Sequence record: OZ035799.1
Length of the DNA: 64,000 bases
From: Justusliebigvirus alia
Strand: one strand, 5' to 3'
Below are positions 403 to 37,979 of the stretch, in pieces (position 1 is the first letter of the stretch; each line of letters starts with the position of its first letter). Made by a program: the position numbers and the translations under genes. A model generated the notes under the pieces. That model had not been told where the DNA came from and did no database searches. It was given only the letters and a program-made list of their open reading frames with translations.

Positions 403-2364
403 GTGATTTTAACACGTCCAAATAGTGCCATTGCAGACATGGTAGAGTCTCGCTATAGAAAGCGTAGAAGTTTTGCAAGTGGTTTTACCTTAAGAGATGC
501 TCGTGAAGCATTGCTCTTTGAAACTGACGGTAACTACTATCAGTGGAAAGGTTCTCTACCTAAAGTTGTACCTGCTAACTCTACTCCTACATCTACTGGA
601 GGGATTTCAGATACAGCTTGGAAAAATGTGGGTAATGCAGATGACATTGCTCAAATAGAATCAGAATTAGATGCTATTGAAGCTGAAATTGAAGATCTTA
701 GAGAATCCATTCCAGAAGCTGGTAAATCAGCTTACCAGATTGCCGTAGACAATGGTTTCCAAGGTACTGAGACAGAGTGGTTGGCTTCTTTAAAAGGTGA
801 TCCAGGTGCTCCATTAAAGCTGCTAGGGACACTATCTAATACCAACCAATTACCTACAACTGGAAACAATGCAGGAGATGCATGGATTGTAGGCGAGAAT
901 ATGTATGCTTGGGATGGTACTGCTTGGAGAAAAGTAAACTCACAGGGGCCAGAAGGTAAATCAGCTTATCAAGTTTGGCTTGCAGCAGGAAACCAAGGTA
1001 CAGAACTAGATTATCTTGCTTCAATTAAAGGTGATAAAGGGGAACCTGGCCCAGAGGGGCCACAAGGTGTACCAGGTAATAATGCTAATGGTTTTGATTA
1101 CCAAGGTGCAGCTAATTCCGTTTCAGATCTTCCTTCTGCATCTCCTGGAAACACATCTCAAGCATGGAGTATTGGTACATATCTATACGTGTCAAACGGT
1201 GTAGAATGGATCAATATGGGCGCTATAGTGGGGCCAAAAGGAGATAAAGGCGACAAAGGAGATAAGGGTAACACTGGTGATTCTGCTTATCAAGTCTGGT
1301 TAAATGCTGGTAACGTTGGTACTATTGACGAATATATTGCCTCTCTGAAAGGAGAAAAAGGTGATAAGGGAGACAAGGGTGATCAAGGTGAGCAGGGTAT
1401 ACAAGGCTTGACGGGGCCAACTGGTGCAGGGTTGACAATTATTGATATTCTGACTGACACTTCTGAACTACCACAAACTGGAGAAGATGGTGATGGTTAT
1501 CTGATCAATAATGAACTTTGGGTCTGGTTGCAAGGAGCCACAGAGTGGACAAACGTTGGTCGTTTAGCTGGTACTCCAATCACTGCAAAAGGACACGTTG
1601 CGTCTGCAAGTGCACTTCCTCCTACATCCAATTACGGTGATGCTTATTTGACGGAAGATACAGGTCATCTTTACATTTACACCTATGATGAACAAACTCA
1701 AACTGCTGAATATGTAGATATGGGTAGTTTGAAAGGTGATAAGGGTGAGAAAGGTGACGCTGGTACTAACGGTACGGATGGTGCAACTTGGATTGTTAAA
1801 ACAACAGATCCAATTTCTAGTGATGGTAAACAAGGTGATTATGCCTTTAATATCTCCACTGGTGAGGTGTTCTTAAAAACATCTGCAACTGCCTGGACTT
1901 CTCAAGGTACACTGCCTAGCATCACAGATGCACCTAGTGACGGTAAGATCTATGCTCGTAAAGATGGAGCATGGGAAGAACTCACTAGTTCTGTAGATGG
2001 TCAAGATATAGTTCCAACAAAAGTAACAACTAATTTTATAGAGGTTACAGCATACACCAACAACTCTGTTACAGGTGACTGGACACCTCCAGGAACACAT
2101 AACATGAATGTGTTGAATCTTACTGGTAACGCTACTATAAAAGCATGGCCTGGTGTCGAAGATAGTACAAAACCTAAACCATTCTCTGCAATAGTTTATC
2201 TTATCCAAGATGCCACTGGAGGTCGTACTGTTACTTTAGATCCATCTTACAAAGTAATTGGTTCTAGTGATATTAATACAGATCCTAACGGAGTAACAAT
2301 ACTACAACTAACATATTGTGGTGTTGGCGATTACGTGGATGCTATTGTTGCTAAACGCACATAA
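403..2364 (+). CDS. tail fibre protein with collagen-like Gly-X-Y repeats
   Basis: 653-aa ORF, GTG start 6 nt after AAGGAG; repeats GDKGDKGDKG, GEKGDKGDKGDQGEQGIQGLTGPTG. Confidence 0.75.
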   Translation: MILTRPNSAIADMVESRYRKRRSFASGFTLRDAREALLFETDGNYYQWKGSLPKVVPANSTPTSTGGISDTAWKNVGNADDIAQIESELDAIEAEIEDLRESIPEAGKSAYQIAVDNGFQGTETEWLASLKGDPGAPLKLLGTLSNTNQLPTTGNNAGDAWIVGENMYAWDGTAWRKVNSQGPEGKSAYQVWLAAGNQGTELDYLASIKGDKGEPGPEGPQGVPGNNANGFDYQGAANSVSDLPSASPGNTSQAWSIGTYLYVSNGVEWINMGAIVGPKGDKGDKGDKGNTGDSAYQVWLNAGNVGTIDEYIASLKGEKGDKGDKGDQGEQGIQGLTGPTGAGLTIIDILTDTSELPQTGEDGDGYLINNELWVWLQGATEWTNVGRLAGTPITAKGHVASASALPPTSNYGDAYLTEDTGHLYIYTYDEQTQTAEYVDMGSLKGDKGEKGDAGTNGTDGATWIVKTTDPISSDGKQGDYAFNISTGEVFLKTSATAWTSQGTLPSITDAPSDGKIYARKDGAWEELTSSVDGQDIVPTKVTTNFIEVTAYTNNSVTGDWTPPGTHNMNVLNLTGNATIKAWPGVEDSTKPKPFSAIVYLIQDATGGRTVTLDPSYKVIGSSDINTDPNGVTILQLTYCGVGDYVDAIVAKRT

Positions 2365-2367
2365 TCA

Positions 2368-2392
2368 AAGCCCCTTCGGGGGCTTATTATTT
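2368..2392 (+). terminator. stem-loop (AAGCCCC-TTCG-GGGGCTT) + U-rich tail
   Basis: Inverted repeat immediately after stop at 2362-2364. Confidence 0.45.
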
Positions 2393-2403
2393 AAGGAGAT
2401 TAA

Positions 2404-5217
2404 ATGTATCCTATTCCTTTATTTATGTCAACAACATCAGCTTCAGTAGTAACAGCTACATCTATAACCACTTCATCTATTGGTATTGCAATAGTTGGTA
2501 GTAAAAAGCAACTGACATACACAGTTTCACCGGAAGATGGTGCGTTATTTGATATAGCTTTTTCATCTTCAGATAATACCAAAATGGTTATAGATAATAG
2601 TGGTATGATGGAGTTTGTTGCCGAAGGTGGTTTTGATGCAATAATGACAGCTAAAAATAATTTAGGTGCTGTCTTAACTGATCAATCTGGGGGTTATGCT
2701 TCAGAATTAAGCGTGTACACTGAAAGTCTATCAGCTATGGATGTAGGCACTACTCAACAGTTGGTTGCTACAATCAGTCCAGAAGGTGCTAAAGATCTTC
2801 CAGACATGGTAATTACGTACACCACAACAGATCCAGAAGTAGCTACTGTAAGCCCTACAGGATTAATAACTGCTCTTAAAGATGGCAATTGCCGTATAGG
2901 TTGTACTGCAACGTATCAAGGAACAGTTGTGGCCTCTGATAGTTCTTATTTAGGTGTTAATGCTATTCCTGTTATTTCTAATGTAACAGCCGTGGCAAAC
3001 AGCTATGGAGACGTTCGTGTTGCTTGGGATGTAACTGATCCTCTAGATGGTGATACTTATACTGTAGAAGTATTAGATTTAAGTAATAACAGTGTCCAGT
3101 GGACTACAACAACCACGAATACTTACGCCTACTTTGATATCTCTGACTCTATTCCTCTTTATGGGTTTGCTCCAACATACCTTAAAATTAGCGTTAAGAG
3201 CACCAAAGCAGCAGCCGTTATCTTTAATAACTCAATAGCTACAGATGATTCATTCATTAAAGAAGTTATTGTCTTTGCTGGACAAGATAACGTAAATGCA
3301 CACTTTACAGAACTATCTGGTGCAAATAAAGCAGCAATGAGTAGCACAACAGCCCGTAATGCATATGCTACGCAACGTGGTTTAGCAAATGCTGAAGTTC
3401 TTCCGTTAAATACAGCTTCTGGATCATCAGCAGCAGATAAATATGCTGACGATAAAGCTGGAACAGGTACACCAGACAACTACTGGTATGATCTGGATAA
3501 CACAGCAGATGGGCCATGCTTAACTAACTTTATCACTAAAGTCACACCTTATGCAAGTAAGGTTAAAGCCATTATTTGGGGACAAGGTGAAAATGATGCT
3601 GTATCAGCATCTTCAACTGTTGCAGGTAGATACAGTAACACTACACGTTACCATGATGCTACGATAGCTATCTTTGATAAGATGCGTACAATAGTTCCTG
3701 CTTCTCAAGCAAAAATTGTTTGGCAGATCCTGGGACGTTCTTATTTATATGGTGTAGAAGTTAATGGTGTGGATTGGCAGAAGTACAGAAATGTACAAAG
3801 AACCATCTCTACAGCACGTGATGATGTTATCATTGGTTCTTGGGTAGATGGTGCTGAACGTTACAGTGGTTATGTTTATGAAGAAGGTATTGATGGTCGT
3901 ATCCATTATATTTCTTCTGTATACCAAACAGCAGCTACAAAACTTGCTAAATCAGCAGCAGACGGTACAGACTTAACATCAACGTCACCTGTTTGGGTTG
4001 ATATGGCTGTTCCAACTGGAGCAACAGCTACTTCCCAACCTAATCAAGATACAATTTTAGCATGGGATGCTCAAGGCTATAGTAAACACTACTTCCGTAA
4101 TATTAACGTCTTAACCGCATCTGTATTAACTGAACAAACGCTTAATACGAACAGTTATACGTTTACCTATGCAGATCAAGTAGAACAATATGGTTTTGCA
4201 GCAGGAACTACTGTATTTGATGTTGCATATTATGACGAAGCAAATGATGTGTTATCTCCTTTAGTACGTTTTAATGTTAATGTTACACCAGGAACTGTCG
4301 TGATGGATTATGATTTGACACAAGAAACTCTTCCAGCAGATGTGCGCGTAAACAGGAGCAACCATTATGCTAGGGCTTCTGGAGATATCCTTGTACCGAC
4401 AGAGGTTTCTGCTCCTATAGCACCTTTAGAATATATTGGTACAACGCCACAAGGTAGACGTGTTGTAGCAGCCAGCCGTACATATATCTTTATCAACAAT
4501 AACTTGACAACAGCTTCCCCGTGGTTGAAGACGAACTTGACAGTTACAGCATCAACAATCAACTCTCCGGTTGGAACTACAGCTAACACTTACAAGTTAA
4601 CACCTTCTACAACTTCAGGACAACATATTTTATCAGCGGTGAATACAGCTTCTGATATTACAGCAGGTAAACAATGGGCTGCATCTGTATTCTTGAAACC
4701 AGACGGGATCACTAAAGTCAAGCTCAAATTGACTTCAGGAGATGAGGTTAACGAAGGGACTTATGATCTTGAAGCTGGAACATTTACAGGCACAGATGCA
4801 AATATGATCGACATGGGGAATGGTTGGTATCGTGTAATCTTACATAAAGTAACGATTGCTAAACAAGCCTCTATGACTTATGAGATTATAGCTTTGAATG
4901 CCAGTGGATCAGACACTTTTGCAGGAGACGGCACTGGAGGTCTTATTGCTTGGGTTCCACAACTTGAAATGGGTGATATGACAAACCCAGTTTGGGCGGG
5001 GACACCATTTGTTTGTACTTATGCACGAGACACAGATAGTGCTGCCACCTTCACTATTCCTAAGAACGGACACACTGGCGTGGATATTTACCACACAGAT
5101 GGAACTGTGCAAAGAGAGATTTTCACTGGCACAGCTACTACTTGGATGTTGTCATTCAACGCCGCAAGTGCGGATTGGGGATCGAAATTCATTTCTGGTT
5201 TGAAATATTACGACTAA
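2404..5217 (+). CDS. large tail fibre / receptor-binding protein with Ig-like domains; possible esterase-type motif (WGQGENDA)
   Basis: 937-aa ORF, ATG after AAGGAG; Ser/Thr-rich beta-rich sequence typical of fibres/tailspikes. Confidence 0.65.
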   Translation: MYPIPLFMSTTSASVVTATSITTSSIGIAIVGSKKQLTYTVSPEDGALFDIAFSSSDNTKMVIDNSGMMEFVAEGGFDAIMTAKNNLGAVLTDQSGGYASELSVYTESLSAMDVGTTQQLVATISPEGAKDLPDMVITYTTTDPEVATVSPTGLITALKDGNCRIGCTATYQGTVVASDSSYLGVNAIPVISNVTAVANSYGDVRVAWDVTDPLDGDTYTVEVLDLSNNSVQWTTTTTNTYAYFDISDSIPLYGFAPTYLKISVKSTKAAAVIFNNSIATDDSFIKEVIVFAGQDNVNAHFTELSGANKAAMSSTTARNAYATQRGLANAEVLPLNTASGSSAADKYADDKAGTGTPDNYWYDLDNTADGPCLTNFITKVTPYASKVKAIIWGQGENDAVSASSTVAGRYSNTTRYHDATIAIFDKMRTIVPASQAKIVWQILGRSYLYGVEVNGVDWQKYRNVQRTISTARDDVIIGSWVDGAERYSGYVYEEGIDGRIHYISSVYQTAATKLAKSAADGTDLTSTSPVWVDMAVPTGATATSQPNQDTILAWDAQGYSKHYFRNINVLTASVLTEQTLNTNSYTFTYADQVEQYGFAAGTTVFDVAYYDEANDVLSPLVRFNVNVTPGTVVMDYDLTQETLPADVRVNRSNHYARASGDILVPTEVSAPIAPLEYIGTTPQGRRVVAASRTYIFINNNLTTASPWLKTNLTVTASTINSPVGTTANTYKLTPSTTSGQHILSAVNTASDITAGKQWAASVFLKPDGITKVKLKLTSGDEVNEGTYDLEAGTFTGTDANMIDMGNGWYRVILHKVTIAKQASMTYEIIALNASGSDTFAGDGTGGLIAWVPQLEMGDMTNPVWAGTPFVCTYARDTDSAATFTIPKNGHTGVDIYHTDGTVQREIFTGTATTWMLSFNAASADWGSKFISGLKYYD

Positions 5218-30729: not shown

Positions 30730-31009
30730 CATTATGTTCAAAGTGGCTCGCAAGGCCACTCCCGCACCATTACGTGCTGCTGCATGTCACCATGCAGATC
30801 AGACTATATCTTCATGCTTAAAGCATGTCTACCATTTGGGGTGTCATAGGCTTACACCCTACGCTGCTACATTCATCACAGCTAGTCGTTAGGCATTTCG
30901 TAATAGTACCCCCCTTCTTCTGTGTTGGGAGTTCTGTTACGTTTAGCACGGGATTGTCTCGTTGAGAGTTCCCCCGTTTAGGCAGATTTTACATGAGCAG
31001 TTATAGTTT
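30730..31009 (-). ncRNA. group I self-splicing intron (ORF-less) in nrdD
   Basis: 280-nt non-coding insert; exon 1 ends in U, intron ends in G; core CUAAACGGGGGAACUCUC...GACAAUCCCGUGCUAAA resembles T4 td/nrdD intron core; P7-like GACUAG/AUAGUC. Confidence 0.7.
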
Positions 31010-31867
31010 ACCCATGCTTGTGACGCGACCATCTGAAGATCCTGTAACTTCTTTGTTTAAAGGTACAGAGATAAAATCAGGATAAATGCGTTCAGCACAA
31101 CACTCCATTGCCAGTTGCTTCAAATCATAGTTTGGATCGCCAGCTTTCATGTTAACACCATCTTCCAAGAAGAAGATAACTTTAGGAAACACAGGAGTTA
31201 CCCTATCTTTTCCTAATCCTTGTTTGTGCACCATTAGGTAGTTTTTAGTGATCATTCTACCAAAAGCAGAGGTATCCAAACCTAAACTAATTGTTATAAA
31301 AGGTGACTGACCATTTACACTCATTAGAGTGTTCACTTGGTAGATTAAAGTTTGCATTGCATCATAGACCTGTTTATCTACCATACGCATAGCAATATCA
31401 TAATCACCAACATCAGCATATATTTTATTAAAACTTGCTTTAACGTATTGACTAAGCCCAGTATCAACATGTGCACAAGTTTGTCCACCATATTGGCTAG
31501 AAGCTACTGCTTGAATAATTTGAGTTAGGACAGTAGTCGCTACACCGATAGATTTTGGTTTTTCAATATGTGCATTACCAATACGGAAACCGTTCTCAAG
31601 CATATCTTGGTAATTTACCAGGCAACAATTAGTTAAAGGTGAGAGTAAATAATCTAAATCGTGGATGTGACCATACCCACTTTTATGCCATTCTGCCAGA
31701 TCTTCCGGTAAAATATGGGTCATTGCCATGTGCTTGCTTAGGATACCTGCTAGTAAATCTCGGTGAGTATTAACAATCATTGCAGGTTTGTTTGCATTTT
31801 CACGAGTAAATTCTTCGGATGTTTGTTCGAGGAATCCGATTACATCCTCATATAGTTTTTGGGTCAT
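31010..31867 (-). CDS. nrdD: anaerobic ribonucleoside-triphosphate reductase, exon 1
   Basis: ATG after GGAGGA; track ORF runs into intron and stops after 3 extra codons. Confidence 0.8.
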
Positions 31868-34346: not shown

Positions 34347-36977
34347 TCAATATCTGCCAGCGCCAAATACACCAAGTTTAATACCATTGATCGGTAAAGT
34401 GGTGCTTGTTGGTACTTTCTCTGTTGCAACACGGTTGATATCTATAATCTCCTGTACGGTTGTATTCCATTGTAAGCATTTAACACAACGGGTGTGCGCT
34501 ACATACAGTAGGTTTCGCTCTGCCTCTTCTAGTCCTACCCATTCACCAGTCTTTTTATCATAGTTGGAAGGAAAATCATTAGCAACAATAACCTGATCCC
34601 ACTCCAAACCTTTAGACTTGTGTGCTGTAGTCAGTGTGACTTTTGCTGTAGGGGAATTTCTATGCGTTCTAAGTGTATGTGCTATAGTGTTTGCCTTACC
34701 AGAAACTACGATGTTTAACAAGCGTTTAGCATCTGGATCAGCCTCTGCACACTCAACAAATTCATCCCAGTCTGCATAAGGTAATACAGTTTCATGTTTT
34801 ACTTTCTCAATATCTCCTCTCCGAAGAGCATTAACACTATCTACCATAGAGATAAAATCCCTGGTATCTACGTTAATAATAATTTCTTCCCCATCTGCAA
34901 TACGATCCATTGCCTCCATAAGCAAGGTTAAATTCTTGCGAAAGATGATAGTGTAAGGTTTTGTATAGTCTACAACATCTGATTTGTAGCTACCTACTAC
35001 AGTATCAAAGCCTTTACCAACCAAAGGATGACGCAAAGGTTCTTTATCACTTAAAATCATATTGGCAATGTTTGCCACTTTGGGGCCAAAACGGAAGCAA
35101 GCAGTTAATGGAAGCTCTGCCCCATACTTAGCTGTTTCAATCATCATATTAGAGCTACCTCTAAATTGATAAATACAGTTGTGGCTAAGAATTTCATTGC
35201 CAAAGAAGTTAGCAGTATCCTCTACTTCAATATCATAGTAGATACCCTCACTATCTACAATATCCACAATCTCTTCTGCTGTTACAGTATCACCATCTTT
35301 TACCAACACAGACATGCCTTTAAACAAACCCGCTGCCGGAATTAAGTTATATTTGGCAGTGTCTACAGAGGACATGCATTCTTTTAAAGATGCAAACGGA
35401 ACTATTTCAAGGATCTTTTGTGCAAAACTCAATGCTTCACAATAAGAATTGAAATATTTACGTACACGGTAACGACCTTCCAATTTAGCAACACTTACGC
35501 TTACACCTGCTTTAATGAGTGAAGCATAGATCGGCATTTCACTTTCTGTCCACTCAAAACTGACTTGTGTTCCTTTACAACCTTGTGCTCGCAAAGTCAC
35601 TGTTAACATTTTTCTTTCATCTACTGCACAATTGATGCTGTGCCAATGTGGATAAGCAAAATGATAGTCTTTATCCTCTAAAAGTTTAAAACCATTCTGT
35701 CCGAATTGTTCAAAGATGTTATTGATCCTTTCTTGATTAATGCCGCGTGAACTTGCTTCAAATACACAAGTAGGAATGCCATATTGTAAACTGTATGCCA
35801 TTTCTTTTTCCATAGCAGCTTCGCGATTTTCAACAATGTCCAACACCCATAATTTCTGTGCTTTTTCAGAACGTGTACGTTGCCCCAGTTTAGAAAAACC
35901 TTCTTTATCATCGAATTTGTTAGTGATCCCTACTCGGAAACCTAAATCTTTCCTCCACATTAGGTATACCACCATCTGGTCATCTTTCAGAACATAGGAT
36001 GAAGCCCAAATACGATGGTTATGTGTCATATCTAAAGTTTTACCTGTAGCAGTAATAATATTCCTACCTTTTGTACGTGTAGATAAAGTCTTATTTGTTA
36101 CTTTTCTAAATGTAACTTTACCATTAGAATAAGACTCTACCTTATCACCGATTTGCAGGTCTTTCATTGTAACCTGACCATTCTCGGTGTTAAGTACCGT
36201 GTTTTCCGACACACATTGGAATTCATCGCCAACTACCACAATTTGTTTTGCAGATTTAGCATTTCGCAGAATAGACAAGAATGCAGGGTTAACATCCTGG
36301 AATTCATCACCAAAAATAATATCATAACCAAGATCAGCACCAGATAATTCAAACAATTTTACATAGGTGTCATGCGTCATCAAAGTATCTGTGTTAGGAT
36401 CGATGCGCTCTCGCCACAATTGTTTTGCATACTTAACTACTTCTGTAATTAGTTTGTGTTCGTTAATACCTTTTCTTTTAATATCTGCAAGATGTACACC
36501 AGGAAAATGTTTACGGCTGATAAAAGGATCATCCGAAAATTCAAACTTACCTACGGTTTGCTTGATCATTAAACCAATCATAGCACGAGTTAAAAGTGTT
36601 TTCCCTCGTTTATCAATAAGATTATTAATCTTAAATTTCTTTGCTATCTCGCTACCTGTACCTGCAACGTTAACATACTGTCCTTCTGGTCGTGACAGTT
36701 TTGCACGTAAACGATGATCCAGGAATTGATAGCAAATAGAATGCAATGTACGGCATTCTACATTTAGTGGCATCTTACGTCGTGCTTCTTCTGCCATGCT
36801 TTTATTGAAAGCTAAGTAAAGAATGCGATCTTCTGTACTGTTAGCCAGCAAATAAAGTGTTGACGTTTTGCCTGATCCAGATTTAGCTTGGATAGTTAAA
36901 AAGCGATGGTCTGGAAAAGCCTCCTTAATAGCTGTTTGCTCTTCTGTTGGAGTGAAGCTCAACTCTTTCTTAGCCAT
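34347..36977 (-). CDS. SF1 DNA helicase (UvrD/RecD/Dda-like) interrupted by an intein
   Basis: ATG at 36977 after AGAGAGG; Walker A AKSGSGKT, motif II GDEFQD, motif III split as GDEFQ|intein|CIYQFRGS, motif VI YVAHTR. Confidence 0.8.
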   Translation of the reverse strand: MAKKELSFTPTEEQTAIKEAFPDHRFLTIQAKSGSGKTSTLYLLANSTEDRILYLAFNKSMAEEARRKMPLNVECRTLHSICYQFLDHRLRAKLSRPEGQYVNVAGTGSEIAKKFKINNLIDKRGKTLLTRAMIGLMIKQTVGKFEFSDDPFISRKHFPGVHLADIKRKGINEHKLITEVVKYAKQLWRERIDPNTDTLMTHDTYVKLFELSGADLGYDIIFGDEFQDVNPAFLSILRNAKSAKQIVVVGDEFQCVSENTVLNTENGQVTMKDLQIGDKVESYSNGKVTFRKVTNKTLSTRTKGRNIITATGKTLDMTHNHRIWASSYVLKDDQMVVYLMWRKDLGFRVGITNKFDDKEGFSKLGQRTRSEKAQKLWVLDIVENREAAMEKEMAYSLQYGIPTCVFEASSRGINQERINNIFEQFGQNGFKLLEDKDYHFAYPHWHSINCAVDERKMLTVTLRAQGCKGTQVSFEWTESEMPIYASLIKAGVSVSVAKLEGRYRVRKYFNSYCEALSFAQKILEIVPFASLKECMSSVDTAKYNLIPAAGLFKGMSVLVKDGDTVTAEEIVDIVDSEGIYYDIEVEDTANFFGNEILSHNCIYQFRGSSNMMIETAKYGAELPLTACFRFGPKVANIANMILSDKEPLRHPLVGKGFDTVVGSYKSDVVDYTKPYTIIFRKNLTLLMEAMDRIADGEEIIINVDTRDFISMVDSVNALRRGDIEKVKHETVLPYADWDEFVECAEADPDAKRLLNIVVSGKANTIAHTLRTHRNSPTAKVTLTTAHKSKGLEWDQVIVANDFPSNYDKKTGEWVGLEEAERNLLYVAHTRCVKCLQWNTTVQEIIDINRVATEKVPTSTTLPINGIKLGVFGAGRY
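35178..36215 (-). mobile_element. intein (~346 aa) within helicase motif III
   Basis: Starts Cys (CVSENTVL), block B THNH, ends SHN followed by Cys; middle region large enough for an endonuclease domain. Confidence 0.7.
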
Positions 36978-36978
36978 T

Positions 36979-37455
36979 TCAACCTCTCTTAATTTGTTTA
37001 ACAAGCATAGGAACAAAATCTCGTTTTAAAATTTGTTCAATAATATGATCAGGTAGCTGTTGGAAATTATAATTAAAAGCTACTGTCTCACCTTTAGGTG
37101 TTTCTACCCGCACATATAACATGTTACGAAGTTTATCCACTTGTGCTGTATATTCTAAACCATGTAATTGATGCATTGCAAACATCAAATCATCAGTTTC
37201 AGTTTGGAATCTATCATTTGCTTGCATTAAGGACAAGGTAAAAGGTAGATTTTCCCTAAGAGCCACCTTCTTAGGAACTAGTGAAGGAAAATACTCACCA
37301 ATAACTTCCTGTGTAAGCTGGATACACTCTTTTTCAATTTGGTTTTGTTCCTTAAGTTCACAAACACTTTTTTGTAAAGTGTTAACCTCTTTTTGCAAAG
37401 CTGCTAGTTGAGCACTTAACTTTCTTTTTTGATTACGACCAAAACGTTTAGACAT
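36979..37455 (-). CDS. hypothetical coiled-coil protein
   Basis: 158-aa ORF; GGGGGAAA RBS. Confidence 0.5.
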   Translation of the reverse strand: MSKRFGRNQKRKLSAQLAALQKEVNTLQKSVCELKEQNQIEKECIQLTQEVIGEYFPSLVPKKVALRENLPFTLSLMQANDRFQTETDDLMFAMHQLHGLEYTAQVDKLRNMLYVRVETPKGETVAFNYNFQQLPDHIIEQILKRDFVPMLVKQIKRG

Positions 37456-37463
37456 ATTTCCCC

Positions 37464-37979
37464 CTAGTAAAACCCTTTAACAATCTGTATTAACTCGGCA
37501 CAACGGTTGACCAACTTTTCCTCATACAATACACGTTGTGGCATATGTTGTATAATATACTCCATTTGCTCATGCCATGTCCACTTTTCTTTTTTGTCTG
37601 GGATAACATCACTAGCACGAGAATTATCTTTTAATGTTTGTATAATCCAATTGCTTGGAAAGTGCTCTCCACCTTTCTTAAATGGTTTATAGTGGCCTAG
37701 AGTGAATTGAGAATCCCCTGTTAGAGCACCCAATTTATTTAGATGGATAATCAAACTACGAAACACGTAGTATTCATAGATGTTATCCACCGTATAGCAA
37801 GCATAATATTTCAAGATGCCCTTATCTCGCGGATACTTACCAACATCCAGATTGCACCAGTTGACATTTTCTGGATCATAGTGGTGTTCCTTAAGCCATA
37901 TTTCTCTTTCATCAAAGTCTGGATATATTACCGCTCTGCTTACAGAGTCAACAAGTGGAGATTGAGCATCAAAAAACAT
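37464..37979 (-). CDS. hypothetical protein
   Basis: 171-aa ORF; AAGGAAAA RBS. Confidence 0.5.
   Translation of the reverse strand: MFFDAQSPLVDSVSRAVIYPDFDEREIWLKEHHYDPENVNWCNLDVGKYPRDKGILKYYACYTVDNIYEYYVFRSLIIHLNKLGALTGDSQFTLGHYKPFKKGGEHFPSNWIIQTLKDNSRASDVIPDKKEKWTWHEQMEYIIQHMPQRVLYEEKLVNRCAELIQIVKGFY

Follow-up and report, generated by a model that had tools for sequence, protein, structure and literature searches.

A predicted class 1 intein in motif III of a UvrD-like helicase of Justusliebigvirus alia, and the conserved domain nested in it

Sixteen bacterial UvrD inteins have been catalogued (Novikova et al. 2016, PMC4760082). The element discussed in this report likewise sits in a UvrD-family P-loop helicase at a functional motif, but its host is a virulent coliphage. 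It is an insert of 346 residues in motif III of a helicase encoded in our window, which is the whole analysed stretch of 64,000 nucleotides (nt) of Justusliebigvirus alia (sequence record OZ035799.1).

The element is already known as an intein and does not count as a discovery, since GenBank has copies with 98% identity under that label. The BASEL phages PaulScherrer (MZ501100, bas60_0082) and JohannJBalmer (MZ501084), from 2021, carry an “intein-containing UvrD / Rep family helicase precursor” with the intein as a mat_peptide, and vB_EcoM_ZYD (PQ110661) carries an “intein-containing UvrD”. All three have the same element at the same site of the same gene, with 97.7-98.6% amino-acid identity over all 346 residues. 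The BASEL mat_peptide covers 347 codons, Cys+1 included, whereas by splicing chemistry Cys+1 belongs to the extein. The BASEL paper reports that inteins were found by comparative annotation, says nothing further about them, and neither reports an experiment on this element nor describes the central domain (PMC8594841). According to a 2024 paper, no inteins have been reported in coliphages (PMC11162368), and the GenBank annotation has therefore not yet entered the literature. The intein alone adds little, being a textbook selfish element at the catalytic motif of a replication/repair ATPase that is already labelled in sister genomes.

Justusliebigvirus alia belongs to the phi92-like phages, virulent myoviruses of the subfamily Stephanstirmvirinae. 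The helicase region of the window is 100% identical to that of the unannotated Justusliebigvirus alia record OZ035770.1 and 99.1% identical to that of Escherichia phage phi92, where the gene is number 198 and is labelled by the phi92 authors as a putative DNA helicase II / UvrD with “2 discontinuous domains”. The sole long open reading frame (ORF) across the insert region runs from 34347 to 37016 on the minus strand, with a likely ATG start at 36977 and a GAGAGG ribosome-binding site 5 nt upstream. On the exteins, Pfam finds UvrD-helicase (PF00580, E 8.5e-12) and UvrD_C (PF13361, E 1.1e-10). The spliced protein, computed to have 530 residues and about 59.9 kDa, contains GSGKT, FGDEFQD, and GDEFQCIYQFRGS, all of them features of the superfamily 1 (SF1) UvrD/Rep/PcrA helicases, and the predicted host protein is thus an SF1 UvrD-like helicase.

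Splicing residues, fold and empty alleles

A first, sequence-only reading had placed an intein of about 346 residues at this locus, beginning with Cys after GDEFQ and ending in SHN before CIYQFRGS, with terminal splicing blocks and a TxxH block, and had proposed that its removal restores motif III. Its coordinates proved exact to the base, and the translation bears out the remainder. The insert opens CVSENT after VVVGDEFQ and closes EILSHN before CIYQFRGSS, and the joined flanks give the SF1 pattern GDxxQ-x-IY-x-FRG. Cys1, T64-x-x-H67 (block B), His345-Asn346, and Cys+1 make up the complete class 1 catalytic set, and H67, H345, and N346 are invariant in an alignment of 36 relatives.

Comparison with intein profiles, which that reading had suggested as a check, gave the same picture. 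On the single sequence TIGR01443 scores 20-23 bits, above its cut-off of 15.6; PF01079 (Hint) scores 29.7 bits, which equals its cut-off; and TIGR01445 scores 18-21 bits, under its cut-off of 24.5. A family profile matches solved inteins, among them gp41-1, Spl DnaX, NpuDnaB, and MtuRecA, down to E 5e-19, with the matches confined to profile positions of about 5-74 and 283-341. AlphaFold gave an unusable model from the single sequence (predicted local distance difference test [pLDDT], 31); the model used here, built from the 36-sequence alignment, has the Hint fold, and an independent BFVD model of a 98% identical orthologue superposes on it with a template modeling (TM) score of 0.98.

Empty versions of the site are found in close relatives. 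In a tblastn search with the spliced helicase, intein-bearing genomes gave two separate matches for the gene. In EmilieFrey, Eryne, vB_Eco_PATM, and KKE7M, which belong to the same genus and have a 98% identical helicase, the gene is one piece of 1584 nt, as it is in all Phapecoctavirus-type records looked at (about 82% identity) except DIJ07P2. The motif reads GDE[FY]Q↓SIYQFRG without interruption in EmilieFrey, Eryne, KKE7M, tuntematon, and phi1_175008 (the arrow marks the insertion point), with exactly 1038 nt missing, and motif III is contiguous in every intein-free homologue aligned. The sequence-only reading would have failed if the region were a native insertion domain shared by intein-free homologues; this is excluded because the intein-free alleles read straight through Q↓S, with nothing between the two residues. 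There is accordingly next to no chance that the 346 residues are an accessory domain of this helicase lineage that is never excised, a view with which the “2 discontinuous domains” of the phi92 label would agree: the segment has the Hint fold and lacks none of the splicing residues, it is precisely missing from 98% identical orthologues, and as a native domain it would part the Q from the S/IY of motif III.

Because residues, profiles, predicted fold, and the precise presence or absence in near-identical orthologues agree, we read the insert as a class 1 intein that splits motif III of a UvrD/PcrA-type SF1 helicase. If the conserved chemistry is a guide, a precursor of about 99 kDa would be translated and the Hint domain (residues 1-75 plus 289-346) would excise itself by an N-S acyl shift at Cys1, trans-thioesterification to Cys+1, cyclisation of Asn346 helped by His345 and the T64xxH67 block, and a final S-N shift. 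The products would be a helicase of about 60 kDa in which motif III reads GDEFQ-CIYQFRG unbroken, plus the free intein of about 39 kDa.

Distribution and transfer of the intein

Smaller homologue searches, with the intein or with a central-domain profile, returned only two or three relatives, and the family came to light when 1.84 billion representative proteins were searched exhaustively with HMMER: 1166 clusters match at E<1e-3, of which 122 are at E<1e-30, and most matches span all 346 residues at 28-50% identity. The insertion point is GDxxQ↓[S/C]-x-[Y/F] in 88 of the 92 full-length members, in UvrD-type helicases that are otherwise very different, and metagenomic relatives share the junction GDxxQ↓SIYxFRG. 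All 92 begin with Cys; 81 end in HN and 11 in SN, and the +1 residue is Ser (75 members), Cys (16), or Thr (1). A small number of members lie at other sites or in other host proteins, one of which is a DNA methyltransferase.

Two relatives differ in their arrangement. In Klebsiella phage KP13-16 (locus positions 740-4336) the helicase, a 1198-residue ORF labelled “hypothetical protein”, has a motif III intein 60% identical to ours and a second, unrelated intein in Walker A. The latter (GTGK↓AQPL...IVTHN↓TSTL) starts with Ala instead of Cys or Ser and contains an LGVLIGDGY motif of the LAGLIDADG type. Vibrio phage RYC (locus positions 238-2892) has a shorter relative that keeps the VYLM...FRIG core and is without the second lobe of the central domain. 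The insertion point of this intein (GDKYQQLY↓C...LTHN↓CFRGS) is again in motif III but three codons downstream of ours, as if it had shifted within the motif.

Of some 130 Stephanstirmvirinae-like helicase records, 39 have the intein (coverage of 80% or more); tblastn finds about 55 records with the near-identical version of the helicase and 77 more with the version of about 82% identity. Four records deposited as Campylobacter phage with C. jejuni as host (MG065639, MG065645, MG065656, and MG065689) have this gene at 98% identity to phi92-like coliphages, and their host label looks doubtful.

The DNA next to the insertion point follows the intein. Over 4.3 kb, about 2% of positions distinguish the window from EmilieFrey, against 28 of the 78 positions from -26 to +51 (Fisher p 3e-26). 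Downstream of the junction every intein-free allele has SIYQFRGSQNMMK and every intein-bearing one has CIYQFRGSSNMM[I/V]; upstream, intein-bearing Justusliebigvirus genomes are closer to the Klebsiella-phage lineage (KP2025 and phi1_175008) than to their intein-free congeners. The simplest reading of the whole junction patch is donor DNA that would have been co-converted when the intein arrived.

The Phapecoctavirus DIJ07P2 presents a sharper case. Its intein protein is 100% identical to that of the window. Its N-extein is 97.2% identical to that of Phapecoctavirus tuntematon and 73.2% identical to the window's. In the first 275 nt of the C-extein the relation is reversed, with 99.3% identity to the window and 68.4% to tuntematon; beyond them the C-extein is again 98.3% tuntematon-like. 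Thus, a Justusliebigvirus-type patch of 1.3 kb (locus positions 3000-4310) with about 99.5% identity lies inside a tuntematon-type helicase that outside the shared tract is about 73-77% window-like. By these identities the mosaic indicates a very recent exchange between two phage genera, and its start at the intein boundary is the trace that would be expected of double-strand break repair at the insertion site. With a sporadic distribution, flanks that appear co-converted, and transfer incongruent with the host gene, the intein is mobile now, or was so until recently.

To judge from these footprints in the population, the nested two-lobed domain would most likely cut, in a mixed infection, those helicase alleles that are free of the intein, at the Q↓S junction or close to it, and repair of the break from an intein-bearing genome would then copy in the intein together with adjacent extein DNA. 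PaulScherrer, which bears the intein, and EmilieFrey, which is free of it, have 98% identical helicases, belong to the same public collection (BASEL), and can both be grown on E. coli K-12. This pair allows a direct test of intein homing, of the length of co-conversion tracts, and of any fitness cost in the best-understood host.

The nested central domain

Between the two Hint halves lie 213 residues (76-288) with a predicted fold of pLDDT above 90, conserved as protein at 25-45% identity. Among the conserved residues of the first lobe (Table 1), M86, G92, R94, G96, W123, and P189 are invariant over the 36 relatives and the others nearly so. Relative to KP2025, the central domain has a ratio of nonsynonymous to synonymous substitution rates (dN/dS) of 0.22; in the N-terminal part of Hint it is 0.23 and in the C-terminal part 0.012, which marks strong purifying selection on the splicing halves. 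The central domain is a real, selected domain. The first lobe is a candidate nuclease, the second a candidate DNA-binding part.

The sequence-only reading had judged the middle of the intein large enough for a homing endonuclease and had proposed a search for LAGLIDADG or HNH motifs. The size is as supposed, but neither motif was found, and the domain matches no known nuclease family. Pfam gave no match for residues 76-288 from single sequences, from the 36 relatives, or from the family consensus; a central-domain profile run against PDB sequences gave nothing (the best hit, Tektin at E 1.4, is noise); PHROGs and PADLOC yielded no credible match to the consensus sequences of the two subdomains; and Foldseek searches of PDB and BFVD were dominated by Hint matches and uninformative on this part. 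We reject an HNH identity, given no HNH Pfam match in any of the 36 relatives, and a LAGLIDADG identity, for which there was likewise no Pfam match. The LAGLIDADG inteins PI-SceI, PI-PfuI, PI-PkoII, and TliVMA share with the window intein a Hint domain split by a nested domain, and homing footprints; about 130 Hint residues superpose, and only those align, whereas the fold of the nested domain differs.

An IMG/VR search with a tighter alignment found 13 loci with the central domain, at least 10 of them in UvrD motif III inteins. In two viral IMG/VR contigs, around position 2500, the domain lies in ORFs that have …GQCQPPGTQ… upstream and are without the GDxxQ junction; the element there is probably an intein of this type that occupies a different site or a different host protein.

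Non-canonical actinophage inteins with a hidden out-of-frame endonuclease architecture have been described (bioRxiv 10.1101/2025.01.02.630785), and the intein DNA of the window does contain short ORFs in other frames (35678..35911 on the minus strand, 77 residues; 35740..35997 on the plus strand, 85 residues). That the endonuclease lies in such a frame or on the antisense strand, and that the in-frame translation is a spacer, is nevertheless very improbable. These alternative-frame and antisense ORFs have at most 86 residues and are absent from the 60% identical KP13-16 intein, no conserved out-of-frame ORFs with nuclease motifs were seen across the family, and it is the in-frame domain that has the confident predicted fold and the conservation at the protein level. 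We therefore rejected a hidden endonuclease of this kind.

The leading hypothesis for the first lobe is a GIY-YIG-like fold. Its order of secondary-structure elements is b81-88, b92-98, a110-116, b121-128, and a131-145 (b, strand; a, helix), and Y84, R94/G96, R113, and E138 fall where the GIY Tyr, the YIG motif, the Arg, and the Glu sit in GIY-YIG nucleases. The likeness is topological and weak, and we would put the assignment at slightly less than an even chance. An hhalign comparison with ten I-TevI-type GIY-YIG domains from phage genes gave the same register, but at a probability of 0.3% and an E value of 0.18, which is not significant; there is no significant sequence or profile similarity to I-TevI, Slx1, or PD-T4-3. 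In contrast to these nucleases, the domain has the invariant R94 in place of the second Tyr and lacks a conserved Asn. In 2009, GIY-YIG domains were “not known to be present in inteins” (Dassa et al. 2009, PMC2677866), and no later report of an in-frame GIY-YIG domain in an intein was found in the literature library searched.

Taken together, we consider it very probable that the insert is a self-excising class 1 intein in motif III whose nested domain is, most likely, a homing endonuclease. An intein that splices but whose central domain is not an active nuclease, being decayed, DNA-binding-only, or repurposed (e.g., regulatory), and that spreads only by ordinary recombination, is considerably less probable. 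The domain is under purifying selection by its dN/dS; it is conserved across >1000 clusters and keeps invariant charged and aromatic residues; the single address GDxxQ↓S/C in 88 of 92 very diverse helicases is what a site-specific endonuclease produces; and 3 nt separate the start of the DIJ07P2 tract from the intein boundary, as expected for break repair at the insertion site. 

Some observations weigh against the preferred reading of a splicing, homing intein. The single sequence scores 33.6 bits with PF14890 (Intein_splicing), under the gathering cut-off of 35.8, although 35 of the 36 relatives match this profile, down to E 3e-19. No stand-alone copy of the central domain was found in BFVD or IMG/VR, where none of the 13 loci looks free-standing, and no splicing or cleavage experiment on this protein was found in the searchable literature. 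A premature stop costs the host helicase 48 C-terminal residues, which leaves the functional state of the host gene in the window uncertain. Finally, the DIJ07P2 mosaic could in principle be due to ordinary homologous recombination, a less specific explanation.

The nested domain is an orphan fold family, and no description of it was found in the literature, within the limits of what was searchable. We suggest tentatively, and would sooner bet against this formulation in full than for it, that it may represent a type of intein-borne homing endonuclease that has not been described before, in which an extremely diverged GIY-YIG-like catalytic lobe, encoded in frame, is joined to a DNA-binding lobe of its own. 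The type would be common to >1000 clusters that nearly all target GDxxQ↓SIYxFRG of UvrD-family helicases, and would still be homing between coliphage genera. If the domain is a nuclease, it would extend the endonuclease types captured by inteins and offer a new long-target DNA-cleaving scaffold.

Feature coordinates and other selfish elements

Table 1. Coordinates in the window of the helicase gene, the predicted intein and its parts, and the flanking tracts
Feature	Coordinates	Strand	Remarks
Helicase precursor ORF (N-extein + intein + C-extein)	34347..36977	-	876 aa, ~99.2 kDa; stop TGA 34347-34349
N-extein, 254 aa	36216..36977	-	Walker A GSGKT; motif II FGDEFQD; first half of motif III VVVGDEFQ
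Intein (predicted), 346 aa, ~39.3 kDa	35178..36215	-	Class 1 signature Cys1, TxxH, HN, Cys+1; precursor residues 255-600
N-terminal half of Hint splicing domain (residues 1-75)	35991..36215	-	Cys1 36213-36215; block B T64-H67 36015-36026
Central domain N-subdomain (lobe 1, residues 76-192)	35640..35990	-	Beta-beta-alpha-beta-alpha core, then two short helices; conserved Y84 L85 M86 G92 R94 G96 R113 E117 W123 A134 E138 P148 F168 P189
Central domain C-subdomain (lobe 2, residues 193-288)	35352..35639	-	Alpha/beta module; conserved RxRxxFxxYxxAxxFA
C-terminal half of Hint domain (residues 289-346)	35178..35351	-	Blocks F/G; terminal His345-Asn346
C-extein, 276 aa	34350..35177	-	Opens with Cys+1 nucleophile (35175-35177); remainder of motif III CIYQFRGS
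Upstream flank patch, -26..-1	36216..36241	-	Unlike intein-free alleles of the same genus
Downstream flank patch, +1..+51	35127..35177	-	Tracks the intein: CIYQFRGSSNMMI with, SIYQFRGSQNMMK without
Tract shared with DIJ07P2 (intein + 3 nt upstream + 275 nt downstream)	34903..36218	-	6 differences in 1316 nt
Intein-free helicase junction, EmilieFrey or tuntematon			GAATATCAG↓AGCATTTAC

The window helicase is 48 codons shorter at its C terminus than the versions of phi92, PaulScherrer, JohannJBalmer, vB_EcoM_ZYD, and EmilieFrey. Its early stop arises from three clustered substitutions at 34347-34355 on the minus strand, ACA TCT CGA to AGA TAT TGA, and the 144 nt downstream of it are in frame and conserved. 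A frameshift as the origin is ruled out, the change being CGA to TGA; the stop is either a real truncation of the helicase C-terminal tail or a sequence error in the window assembly.

Two other selfish elements that the sequence-only reading had named nearby, an intron in nrdD and a free-standing HNH-like gene, were both recovered. At 30780-31055 on the minus strand, the gene for the large subunit of the anaerobic ribonucleotide reductase contains a group I intron (RF00028, 72.3 bits, E 2e-16), and phi92 has nrdD labelled as a “spliced variant” at the same place. The HNH-like gene corresponds to an ORF of 171 residues at 37464-37979 on the minus strand, two genes upstream of the helicase, by the annotation of its phi92 homologue gp200 as a “predicted HNH endonuclease-like fold”.

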